Shown: piece by piece, positions 8,898-55,690 of the stretch | How positions within the stretch are numbered: the stretch's first letter is position 1 | Layout: every line of letters starts with the position of its first letter | NCBI GenBank assembly: GCA_963801505.1 | Contig: CAWDEY010000002.1 | Coordinates: 14,231 to 78,230 of the forward strand | DNA length: 64,000 nucleotides | Source: an uncultured Nitrospira sp. | GTDB taxonomy: Bacteria > Nitrospirota > Thermodesulfovibrionia > Thermodesulfovibrionales > UBA6898 | Reading direction: 5' to 3' | The notes under the pieces: model-generated | Databases searched by the model: none | Told to the model about the DNA's origin: nothing | The model's input: only the letters and a program-made list of their open reading frames with translations | Translations under genes and position numbers: made by a program

Positions 8898-9102
8898 TCT
8901 GAATTGACGATCAAAGCTGCCTGACAATTTGACAGTATTTCCGGTTTTATGTTTTAATAATTTCGCTTTTAAAAATAGCCCGGCGAGGCTAAAAAGGCAA
9001 AGGAGTCAGCGTGAGCTGCATTCAAAACATCAAATCTCAACCAAACCTTCAAAACGCTGCAATTGCGTCCGCGCCAGACTATTTTCCCAACTCCGGAGTC
9101 AT

Positions 9103-9272
9103 AAAACTAAAAACGACAGTTCATTCACCACAGAGACACGGAGACTCTGAGAAAACAAAGGGTTGTAGAATAATTTTGTTTCGCCATCAAGGAGAAGGAA
9201 TCATTCAGGCTTTTTCTCTTACTTCTCAACTCTGTGCCTCAGTGTCTCTGCGGTTAACTGCTTTTTCAAGGA
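9103..9272. mobile_element. MITE-like element, family A copy 1 (CCACAGAG-type terminal inverted repeats)
   Basis: Left end CTAAAAACGACAGTTCATTCACCACAGAGACACGGAG and right end CTCAGTGTCTCTGCGGTTAACTGCTTTTTCAAGG are inverted. The core is about 85 percent identical, in reverse orientation, to 35034-35199. Confidence 0.8.
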
Positions 9273-9275
9273 TAA

Positions 9276-10719
<1,444 letters not shown>

Positions 10720-10723
<4 letters not shown>

Positions 10724-12041
10724 ACATATTGATAAAAAACGGACATCTGGTTGACCCCTCTCAGGGGATTGACGGCATATGCGATATACTTGTAGAAAAT
10801 GGAAAAATCAAGGAAGTGCAAAAGCGCGGAAGTGCGGAAGCGCGGAAGAAAAAGAATTCGGAATCCCAAAATCCCGGGCCAGCGGGCTATCAGATCATCG
10901 ACGCAACGGACATGCTCGTCCTTCCAGGCCTTGTTGATATGCATGTTCATTTGAGAGAGCCGGGCTTTGAATACAAGGAGACCATACAGACAGGCACAGA
11001 GGCTGCGGTAGCAGGTGGGATCACCTCGGTCTGCTGCATGCCAAATACAAACCCTGTAAATGACAACGCAAGCGTAACTGATTTCATACTGAAAAGGACA
11101 ATGGAGAGAGGATTTTGCGACGTATTCCCTGTAGGCGCCATCACAAAAGGCCAAAAAGGTGAGGAACTCGCTGAATTCGGTATGATGTACGAGGCAGGGT
11201 GTATCGCCTTTTCTGATGACGGCAGGCCTGTCACGGACAGTCTGATAATGCGCAGGGCACTTGAATATTCAAAGATATTCAACGTGCCGGTAATATCCCA
11301 TGCAGAGGACATCTCCCTTTCTGCCGGAGGGGTAATGAACGAAGGGCTCCTGTCGTTCAAACTCGGGCTCAAGGGCATCCCATCGCAGGCTGAAGAGATC
11401 ATGATCTGCCGTGACATCGCCCTTGCAGAACTTACAGGAGGCCGTCTGCATATAGCGCATGTCTCGACAAAAGGCTCTGTTGAACTGATACGGTCAGCCA
11501 AAAAGAGAGGTATCGCGGATGTCACTGCCGAGACCTGTCCTCATTATTTCAGCATCACAGAAGAGGCAGTCGAAGGATATAACACAAACGCCAAGGTAAA
11601 CCCGCCACTGAGAAGAAATGAGGACGTGGAGGCGATCAAGGAAGGGGCTCACGGACAACACCATAGATGTTATCGTCACAGACCACGCACCGCATCACAG
11701 GGATGAAAAACTCGGGGAATTCGATCTGGCGCCTTCAGGCATTTCAGGGTTTGAAACATCAATAGGCCTGAGCATGAAGCTCGTTGATGAAGGGGTCCTC
11801 ACTCTGAAGCAGCTGATAGAGAAGATGACCCTGAATCCCTCAAAGATCGTAGGCATAAGTAAAGGGACGCTTAGAGCAGGGAGCAGATGCAGACCTCGTA
11901 ATTCTGGATACACACAATGAATATACAGTTGATTCAGCCGGCTTCAGATCAAAGGGAAAGAACACTCCTTTTGAGGGATGGAAACTCAAGGCCAGGCCGG
12001 TTGCAACCATCTCAAAGGGAAGGATATATACATGGCAATAA
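10720..12041 (+). pseudogene. pyrC: dihydroorotase gene carrying two +1 frame breaks
   Basis: [14 protein letters not shown] in frame 1. [19 protein letters not shown] follows in the next frame after the GGGG run at 11644-11647. [15 protein letters not shown]...[10 protein letters not shown] follows in the third frame after about 11885. Stop overlaps the carA ATG. Confidence 0.85.
10824..10878 (+). repeat. bipartite short-tandem-repeat element inside pyrC
   Basis: GCGCGGAA GTGCGGAA GCGCGGAA, spacer GAAAAAG, then AATTCGG AATCCCA AAATCCC; encodes [15 protein letters not shown] within a loop preceding the PGLVD metal site. Confidence 0.7.
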
Positions 12042-23621: not shown

Positions 23622-23790
23622 CCCTAAAAAAAGCAGAATCCACAAAGACGCAGAGTTCACAGAGTAAAATCAAGGAGTTACGGGCAGGACAGGGGCAACC
23701 AAATTGGTCAGTCCCCTCTTTGCCTTAAACCCGCGTTTTCTCAGCGTCTCTGTTATGCATACTTATGGTGAGTCATAATTTGTGGTGTAC
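23622..23790. mobile_element. MITE-like element, family A copy 3 (one end degenerate)
   Basis: CCCTAAAAAAAGCAGAATCCACAAAGACGCAGAGTTCACAGAG ... CTCAGCGTCTCTGT; the core is the reverse complement of the core at 29110-29274. Confidence 0.7.
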
Positions 23791-29109: not shown

Positions 29110-29274
29110 CCTAAAAACGGCAGTTCGTTCACCACGGAGGCACAGAGACGCTGAGAAAACGCGGGTTTGAGGCAAATAGGGGACTGACCAATTTGGTTGC
29201 GCCCCTATCCTGCCCGTAACTTCTTGATTCTACTCTGTGATCTCTGTGTCTCTGTGGTTAAGTGCTTTTTTCAG
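29110..29274. mobile_element. MITE-like element, family A copy 4
   Basis: CCTAAAAACGGCAGTTCGTTCACCACGGAGGCACAGAGACGCTGAG ... CTCTGTGATCTCTGTGTCTCTGTGGTTAAGTGCTTTTTTCAGG; imperfect terminal inverted repeats of about 45 nt. Confidence 0.8.
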
Positions 29275-35033: not shown

Positions 35034-35199
35034 GCAATTAACCACAGAGACACGGAGGCACAGAGTTTAAAAGCAAGAGAAAAGGCCTGAAAGAATCCTT
35101 CTCCCCGACGAAGAAACAAAATTATTCGACAACCCTCTGTTTCCTCAGTGTCTCTGTGCCTCTGTGGTAAATGAACTGTAGTTTTTAGGATGCACAAAA
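35034..35199. mobile_element. MITE-like element, family A copy 2, between gspM and gspN
   Basis: TTAACCACAGAGACACGGAGGCACAGAG ... CTCAGTGTCTCTGTGCCTCTGTGGTAAATGAACTGTAGTTTTTAGG; core homologous to 9103-9272. Confidence 0.8.
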
Positions 35200-47626: not shown

Positions 47627-49954
47627 CTATGGATTTATGGTTAAAGTAAACGCCTGACTTGCGGATGCTCCTATGCTGTCTGTTGCCCTTACTGTAAACG
47701 TATAAGTGCCTGCCGTTGTCGGTGTCCCCGTAATATTTCCAGCTGTTCCACTAGTCGCAATTGATAATCCGGGTGGAAAAGTGCCGGTCATCGTAAATAA
47801 ATACAACCCGCCCGCGTAAGGCACTCCACCAGTTACCGGAATGGTTGCAGTGTATGCTGTCCCAACTGTTCCGGACAGCAATATGGGTGGACCGGTAAAG
47901 GTAATAGACGGGCTGGAAATGGTTATAGAAAACGGTTGAGTTACAGATGTTCCAACGCTATCTGTTGCTCTTACTGTAAACGAATAGGTACCTGGAGTTG
48001 TTGGTGTCCCTGAAATAATTCCACTAGTAGAACCTAGGGCTAACCCGGATGGAAGGACTCCGCCAGCCAAACTGAATGTATACGGAGGTACTCCTCCGGT
48101 AACAGTAAGGCTTGAAGTATATGCAGTCGACACTTGTCCAGCCGCCAATGTGGATGTCCCGCTAAAGGTCATTGGCGCTGCAGCCAAATTCACAGTAGTA
48201 GCAATAGTTGACTTTATCCCTCTTGGCGTCGTTACCGTAGCGCTGACAATACTGCTATTTACCGTACTTGCAGTGTTCGCAGGAACCTCTACAATAAAAT
48301 TGAACATAGAGGGTCCGCTAGATACCTTATCTATGAGAGGTGATTCAATCTGGGTCATCGTTACAGTACCGACAGATGCAGTTGCTGCTACGGTGGTCCC
48401 TGCTTCAAGCTCGCCCAGGTTATAATCACCATAAATGACCGCAAACGAACCACTGCCGCCTTTAGTTATACTTGATGGAGCAACTGCAAAAGCACCCGAG
48501 GGGACAAAGGCAGTTGAATAAAAAACAGGCTCTGTATCAGTGAATTGTAATTTTATGCTGGTCCATATCATCTTGCTGGTCTGACAGCCTGCAGCAGGGC
48601 AATTCGGGCCGTCCCACACGCCATTAGGGCCGTCATACTGGCCGTTGCCGTTGACATCAATGTACTCTTCAAAGAGTTCAGAGCTTGGAGATATTACCCC
48701 ATTACAATTTTTTTCCGTGCCGCTATTTCTGCAGCCGTCATCGTTTTTATCGATAAAAGGTTCTCCAAGGTCAGTGAAGGACTCTCCCAAATCATAATTG
48801 CCGTTTCCATTTGCATCATTAAAGGCCTCTTCACCCTGGACAGTCGCGAGCACTGTCAACCAGCCGTCTCTCGGATTAAAGGTGTGTCCGGATGTGTAGT
48901 AGGGCTCTGTTGGGGCCGGTCTCACATCAGCCGGAATAGGGGCCTGCGTCCTTAGAATTGATGTTGTAATCCCTCGTGCATCAGTGAGTCCGCTCCTGCC
49001 TATGGCCCCTGCCTCTGTATAGAAGGAGACCGAGGTCCCTGTCAACAGATCAAAGTTACCGAACCTGTCTGCAATAAAAGCGGTTTCAGTAGCCTCTAAT
49101 CCGGAAATCCTCAGACCCGGCAGATTAAACGTCGTAGTCGCGAGGTTGAAATGCTTTGCTGAAGGCAGGCCCCCGCCGATCGATATAGTTGCTGTTGAGG
49201 TCGATATCGGAGTCCCTGCTACAGTAGCTATTATTGTGACTGGACCTGAGACATTACCGCTATGTAGTGATATTGTCACCTGTCCGCCAGTTGTTACGCC
49301 GGAGGCCTGCGTTGGTGTATTGTCTATAGCATCGCCTATATATTCACCTCCGTCACCAGGCAATTTCCCGCCGCTGGGGCCGTTCATGGTAAAGTCTATT
49401 TGTGTGCCATCCGAGATATTGCCGCCGGTCACATCAGTGACGGAGAAAAGGACCTTGGAGACCTCTGTCTGGCCGGTGCCCCTTAGCCCTATGACCTGCG
49501 GTGTTGCCGAAACAAATTCTATGCTGGCTGCTCCTGCTGCTGCAATAGGTATGGAAACCGCTTGTGTTATATTGCCAGCAGTGGCGGTTATGATGGCTGT
49601 CCCTGGTATGGACTTCCCCGTAAACGTGGCGATCGCATTACCATTAAAAGTCTTTGACTGGGCTGTTATAGTTCCGAGACTGTTATCGTTCAGGGTAAAC
49701 CTGACTACGGTGCCGTCCGGCACATTCCCGGCTGTGATATCTTTGACTGTTGCTGTGATGCTGGAGGAGCCCTTGATTATCAACGCAGAGGGATTGGCAG
49801 TCAGCGTAATGCTGTTTGGGGCCCCGATTTCATCTCCTGAACCGCCATTAACATTAACAACATTAACGGGTGGCAGATCGCTGCTGCCGCTGCCTCCTCC
49901 TCCGCCGCATGCGTACAAAGCTATTAGAAGCAAGAATAAGAAATACCGTTTCAT
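47627..49954 (-). CDS. large surface lipoprotein with Big_1-type Ig-like domains, Asp/Asn/Gly-rich putative Ca-binding repeats and two C-terminal He_PIG-type Ig domains
   Basis: Lipobox LYAC followed by GGGGGSGSS. Repeated segments ITLTANPSALI...TATVKD..G..V.DGT.V.F. DANGNGNYD / DVNGNGQYD motifs. PPYTFSLAGGVLPSGL...GTPTTPGTYSFTVRATDS occurs twice. Confidence 0.75.
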   Translation of the reverse strand: MKRYFLFLLLIALYACGGGGGSGSSDLPPVNVVNVNGGSGDEIGAPNSITLTANPSALIIKGSSSITATVKDITAGNVPDGTVVRFTLNDNSLGTITAQSKTFNGNAIATFTGKSIPGTAIITATAGNITQAVSIPIAAAGAASIEFVSATPQVIGLRGTGQTEVSKVLFSVTDVTGGNISDGTQIDFTMNGPSGGKLPGDGGEYIGDAIDNTPTQASGVTTGGQVTISLHSGNVSGPVTIIATVAGTPISTSTATISIGGGLPSAKHFNLATTTFNLPGLRISGLEATETAFIADRFGNFDLLTGTSVSFYTEAGAIGRSGLTDARGITTSILRTQAPIPADVRPAPTEPYYTSGHTFNPRDGWLTVLATVQGEEAFNDANGNGNYDLGESFTDLGEPFIDKNDDGCRNSGTEKNCNGVISPSSELFEEYIDVNGNGQYDGPNGVWDGPNCPAAGCQTSKMIWTSIKLQFTDTEPVFYSTAFVPSGAFAVAPSSITKGGSGSFAVIYGDYNLGELEAGTTVAATASVGTVTMTQIESPLIDKVSSGPSMFNFIVEVPANTASTVNSSIVSATVTTPRGIKSTIATTVNLAAAPMTFSGTSTLAAGQVSTAYTSSLTVTGGVPPYTFSLAGGVLPSGLALGSTSGIISGTPTTPGTYSFTVRATDSVGTSVTQPFSITISSPSITFTGPPILLSGTVGTAYTATIPVTGGVPYAGGLYLFTMTGTFPPGLSIATSGTAGNITGTPTTAGTYTFTVRATDSIGASASQAFTLTINP

Positions 49955-50102: not shown

Positions 50103-50705
50103 TTAATCTATAAAATCCGCAAAATTGATTGAAAAGTTTGTCACGAAACTGTGCGTTTTATTAGTATTGACTTCAACGCCGTTAAATGTAACAGTCACAT
50201 AATAACTGTACCCGGGCAGGCCCCCGCACACCAAATTTGATAGAGGTGGGCTTGATTTCATGACCTGACTCGCAACCGGGAGAGAAATGGTTGCAGAACC
50301 TCCCGCTGGTATAATATTGCCCAAGGCATAATTCTGGGCTGGGATGGCAGGACTTGCAGGAGTCGCTGTTGATGCAGGGACATATGTTATTGTTACGCTC
50401 TGGAGTCTCACATCTGAAGCAGTGAAGTCTGTCGGAAGATCGGGAATCGCAGTTGATGTTATCGTAAAATCAGCTGAGTCAGGCAAAATAGTGACACTAT
50501 CAACACCTGGCACCCCGCAATTGTCAGGAGTTGCATCAGTATGTTTCGCCACGTCCGAATCAAACGGATTGCCTCCGGCATATTCAGCCTTGAGTGTGAC
50601 TGTATCATAAACCGCCCCCCCTCCGTCTGTGCCTCCGCCGCCGCATCCTGCAAGGGTTGCTGCAGCAAACATAACTATTAATATCCGTCTTAAGTATTTG
50701 GCCAT
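50103..50705 (-). CDS. lipoprotein, hypothetical
   Basis: Lipobox LAGC followed by GGGGTDGGG (same post-Cys Gly tract as the downstream Ig-like lipoprotein); 200 aa; no family recognised. Confidence 0.5.
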   Translation of the reverse strand: MAKYLRRILIVMFAAATLAGCGGGGTDGGGAVYDTVTLKAEYAGGNPFDSDVAKHTDATPDNCGVPGVDSVTILPDSADFTITSTAIPDLPTDFTASDVRLQSVTITYVPASTATPASPAIPAQNYALGNIIPAGGSATISLPVASQVMKSSPPLSNLVCGGLPGYSYYVTVTFNGVEVNTNKTHSFVTNFSINFADFID

Positions 50706-50770: not shown

Positions 50771-52974
50771 TTAAAGCGGCCTGGTCACTATCGTAGGGGT
50801 TAAAAAGATGAGCATTTCCTTAATGTTAGGTCCTGTCACATTTTTTGTTTTAAACAGCCAGCCAAGACCGGGTATCTTGCTTAAAAGAGGCACCCCGTCT
50901 TCACTTTCAGTTACACTTGTTGTGTATATGCCACCCAATACCAGTGTCTCACCACTCTTGATAAGGGCATTGGTAGTCAGAGTTTCTTTGTATTGATAAC
51001 TGTATTGTTACCGGCAGTGCCGCTTTCGATGCTGTCGTCTGATGCAGTGACCTTTAGCTGGATATAGCCGTCAGGCGTGATCTTCGGAGTGACATCAAGG
51101 CTCAATGTGGCCTTTTTCTCCTCTGTTGACGGCACGCCTGTTGTACTTACTGTTTGAACAAAGAATGAACGTCCCTGCTGTATGTTGGCAGCTTCGTTGT
51201 CCATGGTTAAGATCCTCGGGTTTGATAAGGTCTTGGACTTGCCGATGGATTCAAGGGCGGAAAGGGACAGATTAACCTTTACGGTGCTGGCATTGCCTAC
51301 AGTAAAATCTAAGGCGCCCCCGGTATTTGCAGTTGCTGGTGCCTGCTGCTACAGTCGGGGTATTTACTGAAAAGTTACCGCCAAGCGTATTCGGATAAGA
51401 CGGGACGTGCAAATGACCCGCCCCATCTTATCCCCAATGATTCGCTATAATTGGTCGCAACTTCAACTATCTTTGCCTCTATCATCACCTGAGGCTTTGG
51501 AACATCCATTATAGTCACAAGCTCTTTTATTTTATCTATACTCTTCTGTGTGTCCTTTAAAATAAGCGTGTTCATCCTCGTGTCTATTGCTATGCTGCCC
51601 CGCGAAGTAAGCAGTTTGCCGCTATTTACAGCAGCTGTTGATGTCAGTCGGCAGACGCATAGTTGACGCGTACTATCTCCTGCTCAAGGTCTTCTGTATT
51701 TTTCTCCTTTCTCCTTTGCTTTTTGCTTTTCCTCGGACATCCTGGTCAACACATTGGTCGGTGCAATCCAAAGGATATTGCCTTCAATGGATTTGGACAG
51801 GGGTGGTTTATTGAGTATTGAGTATTATATCCAACGCCTGGTCCCATGGCACATTTAAAAGCTTAATGGTAACATTTCCCTTTACAGCCGGATGCAGCAC
51901 CAGATTGTAGCCGCTGACATCTGCCAGGAGTCTGAATATGGGCCTGACATCCGCATCTTGAAAATCAAGAGATATTTTCTTCCCTGTATATTCGCCTTCA
52001 ATCAGTTTTTCCGGTTCCTGCACAGGCTGGACCGGCTTTGCAGGTACCTCTGCAGCAGTTGCTGCAACAACTGTTTTTTCGGATTTATTATGGGCCTGAG
52101 ATACTGATGTCTCCTTAGCCAGCAGTGAAATCTCAATGGAATTCCCTGTGGCAATGACGTCAAAATTAGTTTTCTGTTTCAGGTCCAGTACCAGCCTCAG
52201 CTTACCCTTGTGTTTTCCGGCCCTTATACCCTTTAAGGGCGAGATTACACTGTCCGGCAAAGTGGTATTCAATGTTACCTCAGGTATATCTATTACAATT
52301 CTTTCATTTACCGGAAAAACGTTAGGTATTATAGTGCCATTTCCTGTTATTAATACTTTTACAGCATCTGCAGTTTTTTTGATTTCTACTCCAGCGATCT
52401 CGGTTGCTTTAGGCACAGGCTGAATATTCTCTTCAACTGCTTTTAATGACATTAGCCGGGGGTTCAGTACTAGCCAAAGCAGGCCCATACGGACTTGCCT
52501 TCAGGGTCTTTAGGTTCCGGCAAAGCAACAGGCTCTTTAGGCTCTGACAAAACAACAGGCTCCTCTTTCTTAATTGAAAGCACGAGGGTATTGTCGTTGT
52601 AAGAAGGAGACACCGCAGACGGGAGTTTGCAGTATAATATCAATTTTAGCCACTGCATCCGGTGTATTGATCTGTTGTGGTATTATCTCTGTTATGCCGG
52701 ATTTATCTGAGACAATCTTGCTTGTGAATTTACCTACTGACATCCCGGGAATTTCTACCGTAACTTTATACGGATCATTTGAATTATATACCGTATAAAT
52801 AAAATTCTTATTACTCTTGATCACTACATCAGCATCCTCTATCGTAATATCAGTAATAACTGCTATTTCTTCTCCTGAAGATGCTTCTTTCTTTCCGGAT
52901 GTTGTAGCACAGCCAAGCAAAAGCATTAACCCCACAATTAATAAACAGAGCTTTAACATTTTATTATTTTTCAT
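50771..52974 (-). pseudogene. pilQ: type IV pilus secretin pilQ, heavily fragmented
   Basis: Lipoprotein signal, two AMIN-like domains, N0/N1 and secretin-domain peptides (LGIRWGG, NPRILTMDNEAANIQQG, VPLLSKIPGLGWLFK), spread over about 8 frame changes and stops. Confidence 0.85.
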
Positions 52975-53486
52975 TATTCCTCCTCCTTGCGGAGTTTCAA
53001 TATTGTATCTTTTTCTTTGGTCTGACCTTTGTAGTCTTTAACCTGTTCTTTTATAAAAACAGAATCGCTTGTAATATCCGTAACCTTGCCGTTGTTTAGA
53101 CCTAAGGTCATTCCCTTTCTGATTGTATAGGATTTTTTATCAGGCATGGTTATAAGCGCATAATATTGCTTGCTGTCCCAAGCTATTGCAATCAGTTTAA
53201 TTTCATCAACGTCAAAATTCTCTATAGGGGTCGCACCCTTTTTTCTTTGGGCCTTTGTTTTGATAGTCTGAACAAGAGACATAAAGGGATCTCTTCTGCC
53301 CTTAGGATCATATACATATATCTCTTTTTCAACCTTTGGTTCCTCTTTCTGGACTGTTGCAGATGCCGCAGGAGTGTTTGCCGCAGGTTTATTAACAACC
53401 GGCTTTTTGTCCGTTGCACCTTTGCCCTTGCACCCCGGGCTTATGAATGCCAGCAATATTAAAATATATACCAGTTTATTCATCAT
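52974..53486 (-). CDS. pilP: type IV pilus assembly lipoprotein PilP
   Basis: Lipobox ISPGC; 170 aa; position between pilO and pilQ. Confidence 0.7.
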   Translation of the reverse strand: MMNKLVYILILLAFISPGCKGKGATDKKPVVNKPAANTPAASATVQKEEPKVEKEIYVYDPKGRRDPFMSLVQTIKTKAQRKKGATPIENFDVDEIKLIAIAWDSKQYYALITMPDKKSYTIRKGMTLGLNNGKVTDITSDSVFIKEQVKDYKGQTKEKDTILKLRKEEE

Positions 53487-54073
53487 TTTTTGGGTTTCCC
53501 TGCTTCAGGAACAGCAGAAAAAGTTGAAGCTTTAAACGAGGCATTGAGAATGACCTCATTTTTAACCACCCTGGGGCCTGAAAGTCTCATATTGCTGATA
53601 TTGACAATCCTGTTCAATTTAGTCAGACTGCTCAGGAAATACCCCAAATTATGATAAGTCCCTTCAACATCTACGGCAACCGGAATTTCATAGACAATGC
53701 CACTGGGGTGAGTAGTCTTTACTCCGGGCTTCCATGATTTTATGTCCAGACCTGCAGCTATGCCAAGATCAGATATCTGTTTCAAAAGGGACGATATCTC
53801 TTTCTCATCCGGCAGTTGTTCCTTGAGCTCATTTACTCTTCTTATCAACCTCTGATTTTCCTGTTTTAAAATGTCGAGTTTTGCAACTTTAGCCTGACTG
53901 GTTGCAATTTCATTATTTTGAACATCTATCTTGGCATCGAGTGCTTTAATCTCCTTCTGCTTCGGCATGATCAGTATTATTATAATGACAAGTGACAATA
54001 TAACAGGGGGGGCAAGCGAAATTATTACCTTGGCATACAATGGAAGATTTTTTATGTTTAAATTGATGGCCAT
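53483..54073 (-). CDS. pilO: type IV pilus assembly protein PilO
   Basis: N-terminal TM, coiled coil, ferredoxin-like C-domain; operon position. Confidence 0.75.
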   Translation of the reverse strand: MAINLNIKNLPLYAKVIISLAPPVILSLVIIIILIMPKQKEIKALDAKIDVQNNEIATSQAKVAKLDILKQENQRLIRRVNELKEQLPDEKEISSLLKQISDLGIAAGLDIKSWKPGVKTTHPSGIVYEIPVAVDVEGTYHNLGYFLSSLTKLNRIVNISNMRLSGPRVVKNEVILNASFKASTFSAVPEAGKPKK

Positions 54074-54074
54074 G

Positions 54075-54614
54075 TTATACCTTGACCTTAAAAGTCAATT
54101 TGAAATTATATAGTGAGTAACCGGTCACTTGTGCTTGCACGGATTCCTGGAGATAGACATCAGTAAAGAGCTTCGAAAGTTTAAGATTGTCTACGTAATT
54201 TACAACGTCAGTATTAGTGAAAGCCGTACAATTCAGGATTACTTTGTCACCTGCCACATCCATGGAAGTAAGCCAGACTCCGTCAGGAAGCAGCTTATCT
54301 ACCTCATCCAGGATCTTAACAGGCAGGGTCTTGTTCTTGCCGAGTTGTTCGATAATTTCCTTTCGCTTCTGAAAATCAGCATTACGTTTTTCAAAATCTT
54401 CCACGTCTTTAATCTTTAGCTTAAGTTCCGTTATTTTTGCTTCGTTTTCATTCACCTTTGCCTGCTTTTCTGATAAACGTCCGCTAAAGAAAAAAACAAG
54501 CCAAGCGAGTACGGCACCTGCAACAAGGGTGGCAAATACCATGGAAATCAGGAATGTCGGCAGGGGTTTTTGTTTTTTCCTCTTTTTAACAGGCAGGAGA
54601 TTGACTTTTATCAT
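54075..54614 (-). CDS. pilN: type IV pilus assembly protein PilN
   Basis: MIKVNLLP N-terminus (PilM-binding motif), TM, coiled coil. Confidence 0.8.
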   Translation of the reverse strand: MIKVNLLPVKKRKKQKPLPTFLISMVFATLVAGAVLAWLVFFFSGRLSEKQAKVNENEAKITELKLKIKDVEDFEKRNADFQKRKEIIEQLGKNKTLPVKILDEVDKLLPDGVWLTSMDVAGDKVILNCTAFTNTDVVNYVDNLKLSKLFTDVYLQESVQAQVTGYSLYNFKLTFKVKV

Positions 54615-55690
54615 CTGTCGCCCTGCCGTCTTAAAGCCAGTCCAACAGCAACAGCCAACATCGGGGCGACGTCATTTAAGCTATAGGACTTATCATTGGT
54701 TACAATGTTTGCCGTCTCAAGTTTCTTGGGTATTTTTATATTTCTGAAGGGTTCTATGATCTTTGTCTCTATACCGGTCCTCTCTTCTAACATCGATACA
54801 AAATTGCCGATCAACGAACATCCCCCGCTGATAATCACTTCAGAGATGTCCTCATTGACTGTAGTACTCCTGTAATAATCGAACGAACGTATGATCTCAT
54901 TAAAAATTTCTTCTGAAGCCGATTCTATAACAGCCATCGCATCCTCAGGGGAAATATTTTCAACTGCTTCACCACTTTTCAATTTTTCGGCATTTTCATA
55001 GGAAATATTAAATTCACGCTGAAGCGCTTCAGTATGCAGATTACTTCCAAGGGAACTGTCTCTCGTAAATACCGAGATACCCCCCTTTAAAATAATCAAA
55101 TTAACCGTGCTGGCCCCGATATTAAGCACTGCTACATTTCTATCGGATTCAACCTCGTAATTTACTTCGTACATATTTTCAAGGGCAAAAGCACCAATAT
55201 CAACAATAATCGGGTTGAGACCGGCTTCCTTGACAACGGAGATATATTCGTTAATGATATCTTTTTTGACCGCAACTAAAATAACATCCATCTGTCCCGG
55301 TTCTTCTTTCGGGCCGATGATCTGAAAATCAAGATGTACATCTTCAATATCAAAGGGAACATACTGCTCAGCCTCAAATTTAATTGACTCCGAGAGTTCC
55401 TCCTCGGTCATTTCAGGCAATGAAATCCTTTTAATAATTACGGATGAATGTCCGGAAACGGATATGACAGCATTTTTTGTCTTAATGCCTGCGTTTTTGA
55501 TCATATTTTTTAAAGATTCAACTAAGCGCAGCGAATCAATTATCGAACCATCAACAATCAATTCCGGAGGAAGAGGATGTACATAAAACAGTTCAAGCTC
55601 ATAGCCGCCCATGGCCTCTTTGAGCTTAACCGCTTTAATGTAACTTGAGCCAATGTCTAGTCCTATTGAATCTTTTCCGCCAAAAAACAT
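54611..55690 (-). CDS. pilM: type IV pilus assembly ATPase-like protein PilM
   Basis: Actin-like fold signatures: GLDIGSSYIKAV at the N-terminus, GGCSLI near the C-terminus; 359 aa. Confidence 0.88.
   Translation of the reverse strand: MFFGGKDSIGLDIGSSYIKAVKLKEAMGGYELELFYVHPLPPELIVDGSIIDSLRLVESLKNMIKNAGIKTKNAVISVSGHSSVIIKRISLPEMTEEELSESIKFEAEQYVPFDIEDVHLDFQIIGPKEEPGQMDVILVAVKKDIINEYISVVKEAGLNPIIVDIGAFALENMYEVNYEVESDRNVAVLNIGASTVNLIILKGGISVFTRDSSLGSNLHTEALQREFNISYENAEKLKSGEAVENISPEDAMAVIESASEEIFNEIIRSFDYYRSTTVNEDISEVIISGGCSLIGNFVSMLEERTGIETKIIEPFRNIKIPKKLETANIVTNDKSYSLNDVAPMLAVAVGLALRRQGDR

Follow-up and report, generated by a model that had tools for sequence, protein, structure and literature searches.

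The pilQ gene of an uncultured Nitrospirota genome, which encodes the outer-membrane secretin of the type IV pilus, is assembled as approximately ten frame segments. We report that these breaks very probably represent a stretch of badly resolved consensus in a metagenome-assembled genome that is error-prone and probably derived from long reads. In the organism itself, pilQ is most likely a single open gene of about 722–725 codons, and the type IV pilus machine is most likely complete. The genome (G000) comprises 2.95 Mb in 26 contigs, with an estimated completeness of 91.8%. Positions given without a contig label refer to the window, i.e., the whole stretch of 64,000 nucleotides that was analysed; its region from 50.7 to 53.0 kb, with pilQ, corresponds to about 64.9–67.3 kb of contig C2.

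The pilQ locus and its ten frame changes

Three-frame translation and frameshift-aware alignment to intact orthologs place pilQ (50771..52974) on the minus strand, reading from an ATG at 52974 to a stop at 50771–50773. An earlier note on this DNA had described the gene as split over many frame segments, and this is borne out: ten frame-changing events leave no single uninterrupted reading frame. In Pfam searches the pieces appear in the correct domain order, namely, a lipoprotein signal (lipobox LLGC), AMIN domains, N0, Secretin_N, and two Secretin halves. The AMIN domains and the N0/Secretin_N ring domains are recognized by PF11741, PF21305, and PF03958, and the C-terminal Secretin domain (PF00263) is present as profile positions 1–102 and 102–168 on two adjoining pieces (E-values 7e-20 and 2e-20, respectively).

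The gene resembles the PilQ of pilMNOPQ operons (TIGR02515) in the operon order pilM-N-O-P-Q, in the order of AMIN, N0, Secretin_N, and Secretin domains, and in the frame-corrected reading, which is 82–84% identical over its full length to nine intact PilQ proteins of Nitrospirota/Thermodesulfovibrionales (720–740 aa). It differs from them in that the assembled frame is broken ten times. The intact ortholog from the congener G001 scores 378 bits against TIGR02515 (cut-off 284), whereas a whole-protein score for the G000 copy would require editing its sequence. Directly upstream lie pilM (54611..55690, 359 aa, PF11104 PilM_2 with an E-value of 3.9e-75), pilN (54075..54614, 179 aa, PF05137), pilO (53483..54073, 196 aa, PF04350), and pilP (52974..53486, 170 aa, PF04351), all of them intact, uninterrupted, and on the minus strand, with the stop of pilP overlapping the pilQ start. 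This flank of 2.7 kb is free of lesions, and pilN aligns to the relative L120, which has pilQ at the same place directly 3' of pilMNOP, with zero gap columns.

The two lipoprotein genes downstream on the same strand, like pilMNOP, are open as the earlier note had stated. They encode 200 aa with the lipobox LAGC (50103..50705) and 775 aa with the lipobox LYAC (47627..49954). The shorter one has no family match in profile searches and has a syntenic counterpart of 202–205 aa in the relatives L119 and L120; exact-protein look-ups for it and for PilP returned no record and hence no independent assembly of this strain. Elsewhere in the genome, the pilB-pilT-pilC cluster (C8:33949-37405), one prepilin peptidase, and 21 ORFs with a prepilin N-methylation motif are all open. 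No second PilQ-type secretin was found in the genome, the other secretins being GspD-like. Every close database relative has an intact pilQ of approximately 720–740 codons, and the gene is intact in the same synteny in 6/7 relatives' genomes inspected and in the short-read contigs L119 and L120.

For mapping the frame changes by frameshift-aware protein-to-DNA alignment, the intact G001 ortholog served as the first reference and the nine intact PilQ proteins as the second; both alignments gave the same ten events. Exact positions were taken from nucleotide alignments to L119 (a JGI short-read assembly) and L120 (a short-read MEGAHIT contig from ENA that shares the infB...pilMNOPQ-lipoprotein synteny), each 86% identical to the window. 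Eight events are extra single bases, one is an extra dinucleotide, and one is a net +1-class shift within a variable linker.

In the direction of reading on the minus strand, event 1 is an extra C at 52623 (ACT[C]CCGTCT), found also in the congener G005. Event 2 falls in a variable EPK-rich linker (52487..52502), where its exact position, near 52490, is ambiguous; it is a net change of -2 relative to the relatives and hence of the +1 class. The starting frame is regained at event 3, an extra T at 52446 (GTCA[T]TAAAAG). Event 4, an extra A at 51816 between two copies of CTCAAT, makes the sole in-frame stop (TAA). Three events follow at short intervals: an extra A at 51697 (event 5, AAAAAT[A]CAG), an extra A at 51648 (event 6, GCCG[A]CTGAC), and an extra C at 51634 (event 7, ACAG[C]TGCT). 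Extra A residues are also found at 51408 (event 8, TTTGC[A]CGTCC), immediately past the LGIRWGG motif, and at 51334 (event 9, CCAGC[A]ACTGC). Finally, an extra GA at 50977-50978 (event 10, AACTCT[GA]CTACC) interrupts the Secretin domain at position 102 of its profile. A seven-base tandem duplication at 51798-51816 was considered for event 4 and rejected: the closer relatives natively carry CTCAAT-CTCAAT, which in L119 encodes LNLN, and G000 has one extra A.

Thus, the earlier description of the locus as a mixture of +1 and -1 shifts and stops requires correction: each of the ten changes amounts to an addition of bases, and none is a net one-base loss or a lone stop. Only two or three of them fall in short homopolymers; most lie outside. 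Among public sequencing runs, only two, both from wetlands, contained small shares of the sequence. Five of the ten sites are without the extra bases in the relatives' short-read contigs, which are one base shorter at 52620 (event 1), 51648 (event 6), 51637 (event 7), and 51408/51409 (event 8), and, in three contigs from two runs, two bases shorter at 50977 (event 10). These contigs come from relatives and not from the strain of G000, and the runs neither confirm nor deny its insertions because they yielded only short contigs of relatives, with no same-strain piece spanning an event.

Frameshifts across the genome

For a genome-wide background, ORFs from 888 kb of G001, a fragmented and presumably short-read bin, were used as queries, and 315 orthologs (344 kb) were aligned to G000. 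Raw nucleotide gap counts against G001 proved too noisy at 75–80% identity and were replaced by clustered net-shift counting and by frameshift-aware protein-to-DNA alignment. Outside pilQ, 60 frameshift events were detected in 37/315 orthologs (approximately 12% of genes), or 0.18 per kb. The density in pilQ, 4.5 per kb, is about 25 times higher and far beyond chance under a uniform rate; its 1.65-kb patch of ten events is the longest found. The earlier note needs correcting in one respect, as pilQ is not the only broken gene of the window: in pyrC (dihydroorotase; 10633..12038, plus strand), two +1 frameshifts, at 11647 and 11879, go uncompensated.

The background events have a distinctive profile. 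Internal stops are almost absent (2 vs 60 frameshifts across the 315 orthologs), the +1 class accounts for 62/86 raw events in the survey, and 65–70% of events have a neighbour at ≤1 kb, compared with about 33% expected. The sole copies of leuS, ligA, polA, proS, and glyQ carry frameshifts, as do mrdA, bamA, proA, pyrC, and acetyl-CoA synthase genes. Two genes reach a local density similar to that of pilQ, namely, glyQ (three events in 0.9 kb) and the methyltransferase gene of the CODH/ACS (Wood-Ljungdahl) pathway (four events in 0.86 kb, at 92% amino-acid identity). Essential single-copy genes cannot truly be broken, and hence their lesions are consensus errors of the assembly; the lesions of pilQ are of the same kind. 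Frameshifts in such genes, the great excess of indels over stop-creating substitutions, the directional bias, and the clustering are all features of an error patch.

Compared with a closed genome from its order, G000 shows approximately twofold ORF fragmentation, and the congeners with the fewest contigs have a completeness of only 78–87%. The combination of few contigs and low completeness is typical of indel-laden long-read bins. A search for the 16S rRNA gene with RF00177 found none in G000, among 26 contigs of up to 351 kb.

ORF-poor segments were partly useful as a proxy for broken genes, some of them corresponding to real small genes (HicAB, DsrEFH). Another dense broken patch was observed in a cluster of the sugar/O-antigen type (C10:27757-29987, L058); here a DegT/DnrJ aminotransferase gene is divided into two or more pieces, and of a gene resembling GDP-mannose dehydratase only the C-terminal third is present. 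A repeat of about 160 bp is dispersed through the genome in more than 40 copies with 88–96% identity (e.g., L004:409-566 and, in the window, 9101-9156, 23627-23753, 29111-29272, and 35131-35188), and a tandem repeat of about 96 bp occurs at L004:883-1249.

Four of the six secretin genes of G000 are broken. Besides pilQ with its ten events, these are a GspD-like gene at C22:155354-158737 (L004; six events), its 81% identical paralog at C18:134406-137663 (L005; six events), and a further GspD-like gene at C11:102791-106300 (L002), split by at least one event into 222 and 536 aa. The ATPase genes beside the three GspD-like genes are open. In the survey, only 2/315 orthologs reached at least four events. 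Heavy breakage appears to be enriched in secretin genes, and random error does not explain this enrichment. If the breaks were real, a Nitrospirota population would be selectively inactivating its outer-membrane secretins through a mutational process that adds single bases, e.g., under phage pressure; we regard this scenario as highly improbable.

Selection, shared sites, and allele diversity

A gene that has drifted long enough to acquire ten independent indels should also carry many neutral substitutions and several stops. The frame-followed pilQ contains zero in-frame stops, and after frame correction against the intact relatives neither nonsense substitutions nor deletions were seen beside the insertions. 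The dN/dS ratio between G000 and G001 is 0.12–0.24 across all segments and resembles that of pairs of intact genes. In a branch decomposition over three taxa (G000, L119, and L120), the G000 branch has a dN of 0.045 and a dS of 0.179 (ratio 0.25), compared with ratios of 0.25 and 0.22 for the intact L119 and L120 branches, respectively; hence this test showed no rise towards 1, as relaxed selection would produce. Nor are the lesions confined to dispensable genes, as leuS, ligA, polA, proS, glyQ, mrdA, and bamA are affected as well.

These observations bear directly on a genuine and very recent pseudogenization, in which the population would truly have lost PilQ by repeated small insertions while the other pilus genes were still intact. 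The concentration of ten lesions in one non-essential surface gene, next to the lesion-free 2.7 kb of pilMNOP, is what such a loss might look like, and the three further broken secretin genes could reflect selection against outer-membrane secretins, e.g., as phage entry points. However, a single frameshift suffices to inactivate a gene, and nine more without a nonsense change or a sequence-removing deletion are unlike neutral decay. Natural indels concentrate in repeats and homopolymers, whereas most of the pilQ insertions lie outside them. Together with the unchanged dN/dS and the same lesions in essential single-copy genes, this makes pseudogenization unlikely. The earlier note had left the choice between genuine decay and a poor assembly patch; the former finds no support in nonsense changes or in dN/dS, and the latter agrees with the lesions of essential genes. 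There is no support for its further suggestion that, if the decay were real, the type IV pilus would be without an outer-membrane channel, since the added bases are of the kind found in essential genes and signs of decay or relaxed selection are lacking.

The extra C at 52623 deserves separate consideration, as it is identical in G005, a different species, with the same context (ACTCCCGTCT) in both genomes; at this site all intact relatives are one base shorter. It is the most plausible candidate for a mixed case, in which one or two lesions would be real and the rest consensus errors on top. The errors of G000 in glyQ and in the methyltransferase gene are not shared by G005. On the other hand, dN/dS between G000 and G005 is 0.19–0.26 on both sides of 52623, at a dS of about 0.3, and this purifying selection excludes an inactivating mutation that predates the split of the two genomes. 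Of the ten sites, this one, where CC has become CCC, has the context most prone to error, and G005 is itself a contiguous bin that is only 78% complete, with a second pilQ shift at approximately codon 290 and a polA gene split 10 nt from the polA shift of G000, in a purine run (GCAAAAGAAAAAGG). A mixed origin is thus very unlikely in our assessment.

Frameshifts at shared or adjacent sites in the contiguous congeners coincide with error-prone contexts elsewhere too. In leuS, the frameshifts of G000 and G003 both lie inside one heptamer-repeat array (C11:288640-288760 in G000), and all congeners examined (L130, L131, L132) carry here a hypervariable in-frame insertion built from heptamer-like, G-rich units together with the complement of these units (GGGGAAT... 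/ ...CCAATCC). By analogy with the polA purine run and this array, we read the shared extra C as a recurrent context error, although this is not proven.

Programmed +1 ribosomal frameshifting or transcriptional slippage could in principle bypass the shifts, or at a minimum the CCC-G site shared with G005, so that a full-length PilQ is produced; this would also accommodate purifying selection on both sides of 52623. It is known that tRNA-Pro can slip +1 on CCC-G, and the site would permit such a slip. However, programming cannot account for all ten sites, whose contexts are unrelated, the CCC is not followed by a stimulatory stop or rare codon, and no intact relative uses a site of this type. 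The probability of recoding is therefore close to negligible.

The consensus-error reading leaves the question of why errors should accumulate at pilQ. Within the genus, pilQ alleles are mosaics (as seen from the window in comparison with L010, L011, and L012-L016), with a breakpoint near 51980. The 5' kilobase of the G000 gene shares about 90% identity with that of G005; in the 3' 1.15 kb, identity to G005 is only 40–55%, against about 83% to G001. The half from N0 to the secretin domain falls into two deeply divergent classes (40–55% nucleotide identity), which are paired with AMIN halves of differing affinity. The gene is, in this genus, a recombination mosaic. Two wetland short-read runs contain many co-occurring variants of the region, with 85–99% identity. 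A chimeric contig join as the source of the 5'/3' mosaic was rejected, because independent short-read contigs show the same combination of alleles, and cross-mapping of reads from a paralog was rejected as the cause of the pilQ patch, because the genome contains no paralog of pilQ at the nucleotide level.

We therefore envisage, as a possible cause, that pilQ is a strain-variable, recombining surface gene for which only part of the population's reads back the assembled allele; this would lower the effective coverage and hence the consensus quality. The genome would have been assembled from long reads that received little or no polishing with short reads, and insertion errors of sequencing or assembly would have become concentrated in the 1.65-kb patch at pilQ.

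Comparison with known systems

The analysis guards against a false claim that the organism has lost its pilus channel. More generally, frameshifts, stops, or “pseudogenes” anywhere in G000 should not be read as biology without read support, and the same warning probably applies to its highly contiguous but incomplete congeners. Counting insertions against nonsense changes, estimating dN/dS per branch, and checking essential genes together provide a quick reference-based test for distinguishing error from decay.

Genuine pseudogenes, as generally known from host-restricted pathogens, resemble the pilQ of G000 in their multiple frame breaks, in the recognizable gene, and in the intact neighbours. 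Natural decay, however, brings nonsense changes, deletions, and a raised dN/dS and spares essential genes, whereas G000 shows added bases only, an unchanged dN/dS, and essential genes affected as well.

A closer parallel is provided by the gene-fragmenting indel errors described for metagenome-assembled genomes and for assemblies made from long reads alone (Sereika et al., 2022, PMC9262707; Sereika et al., 2025, PMC12313526; Kastor, PMC12007338). Differences are also apparent: most of the pilQ insertions lie outside long homopolymers, the classic site of Nanopore errors, and the secretin genes of G000, whose sequencing platform we infer, are affected more than expected. The likeness extends to frameshifts across conserved and essential genes with almost no nonsense changes, to a one-directional bias, to a patchy spread, and to high contiguity combined with depressed marker-gene completeness.
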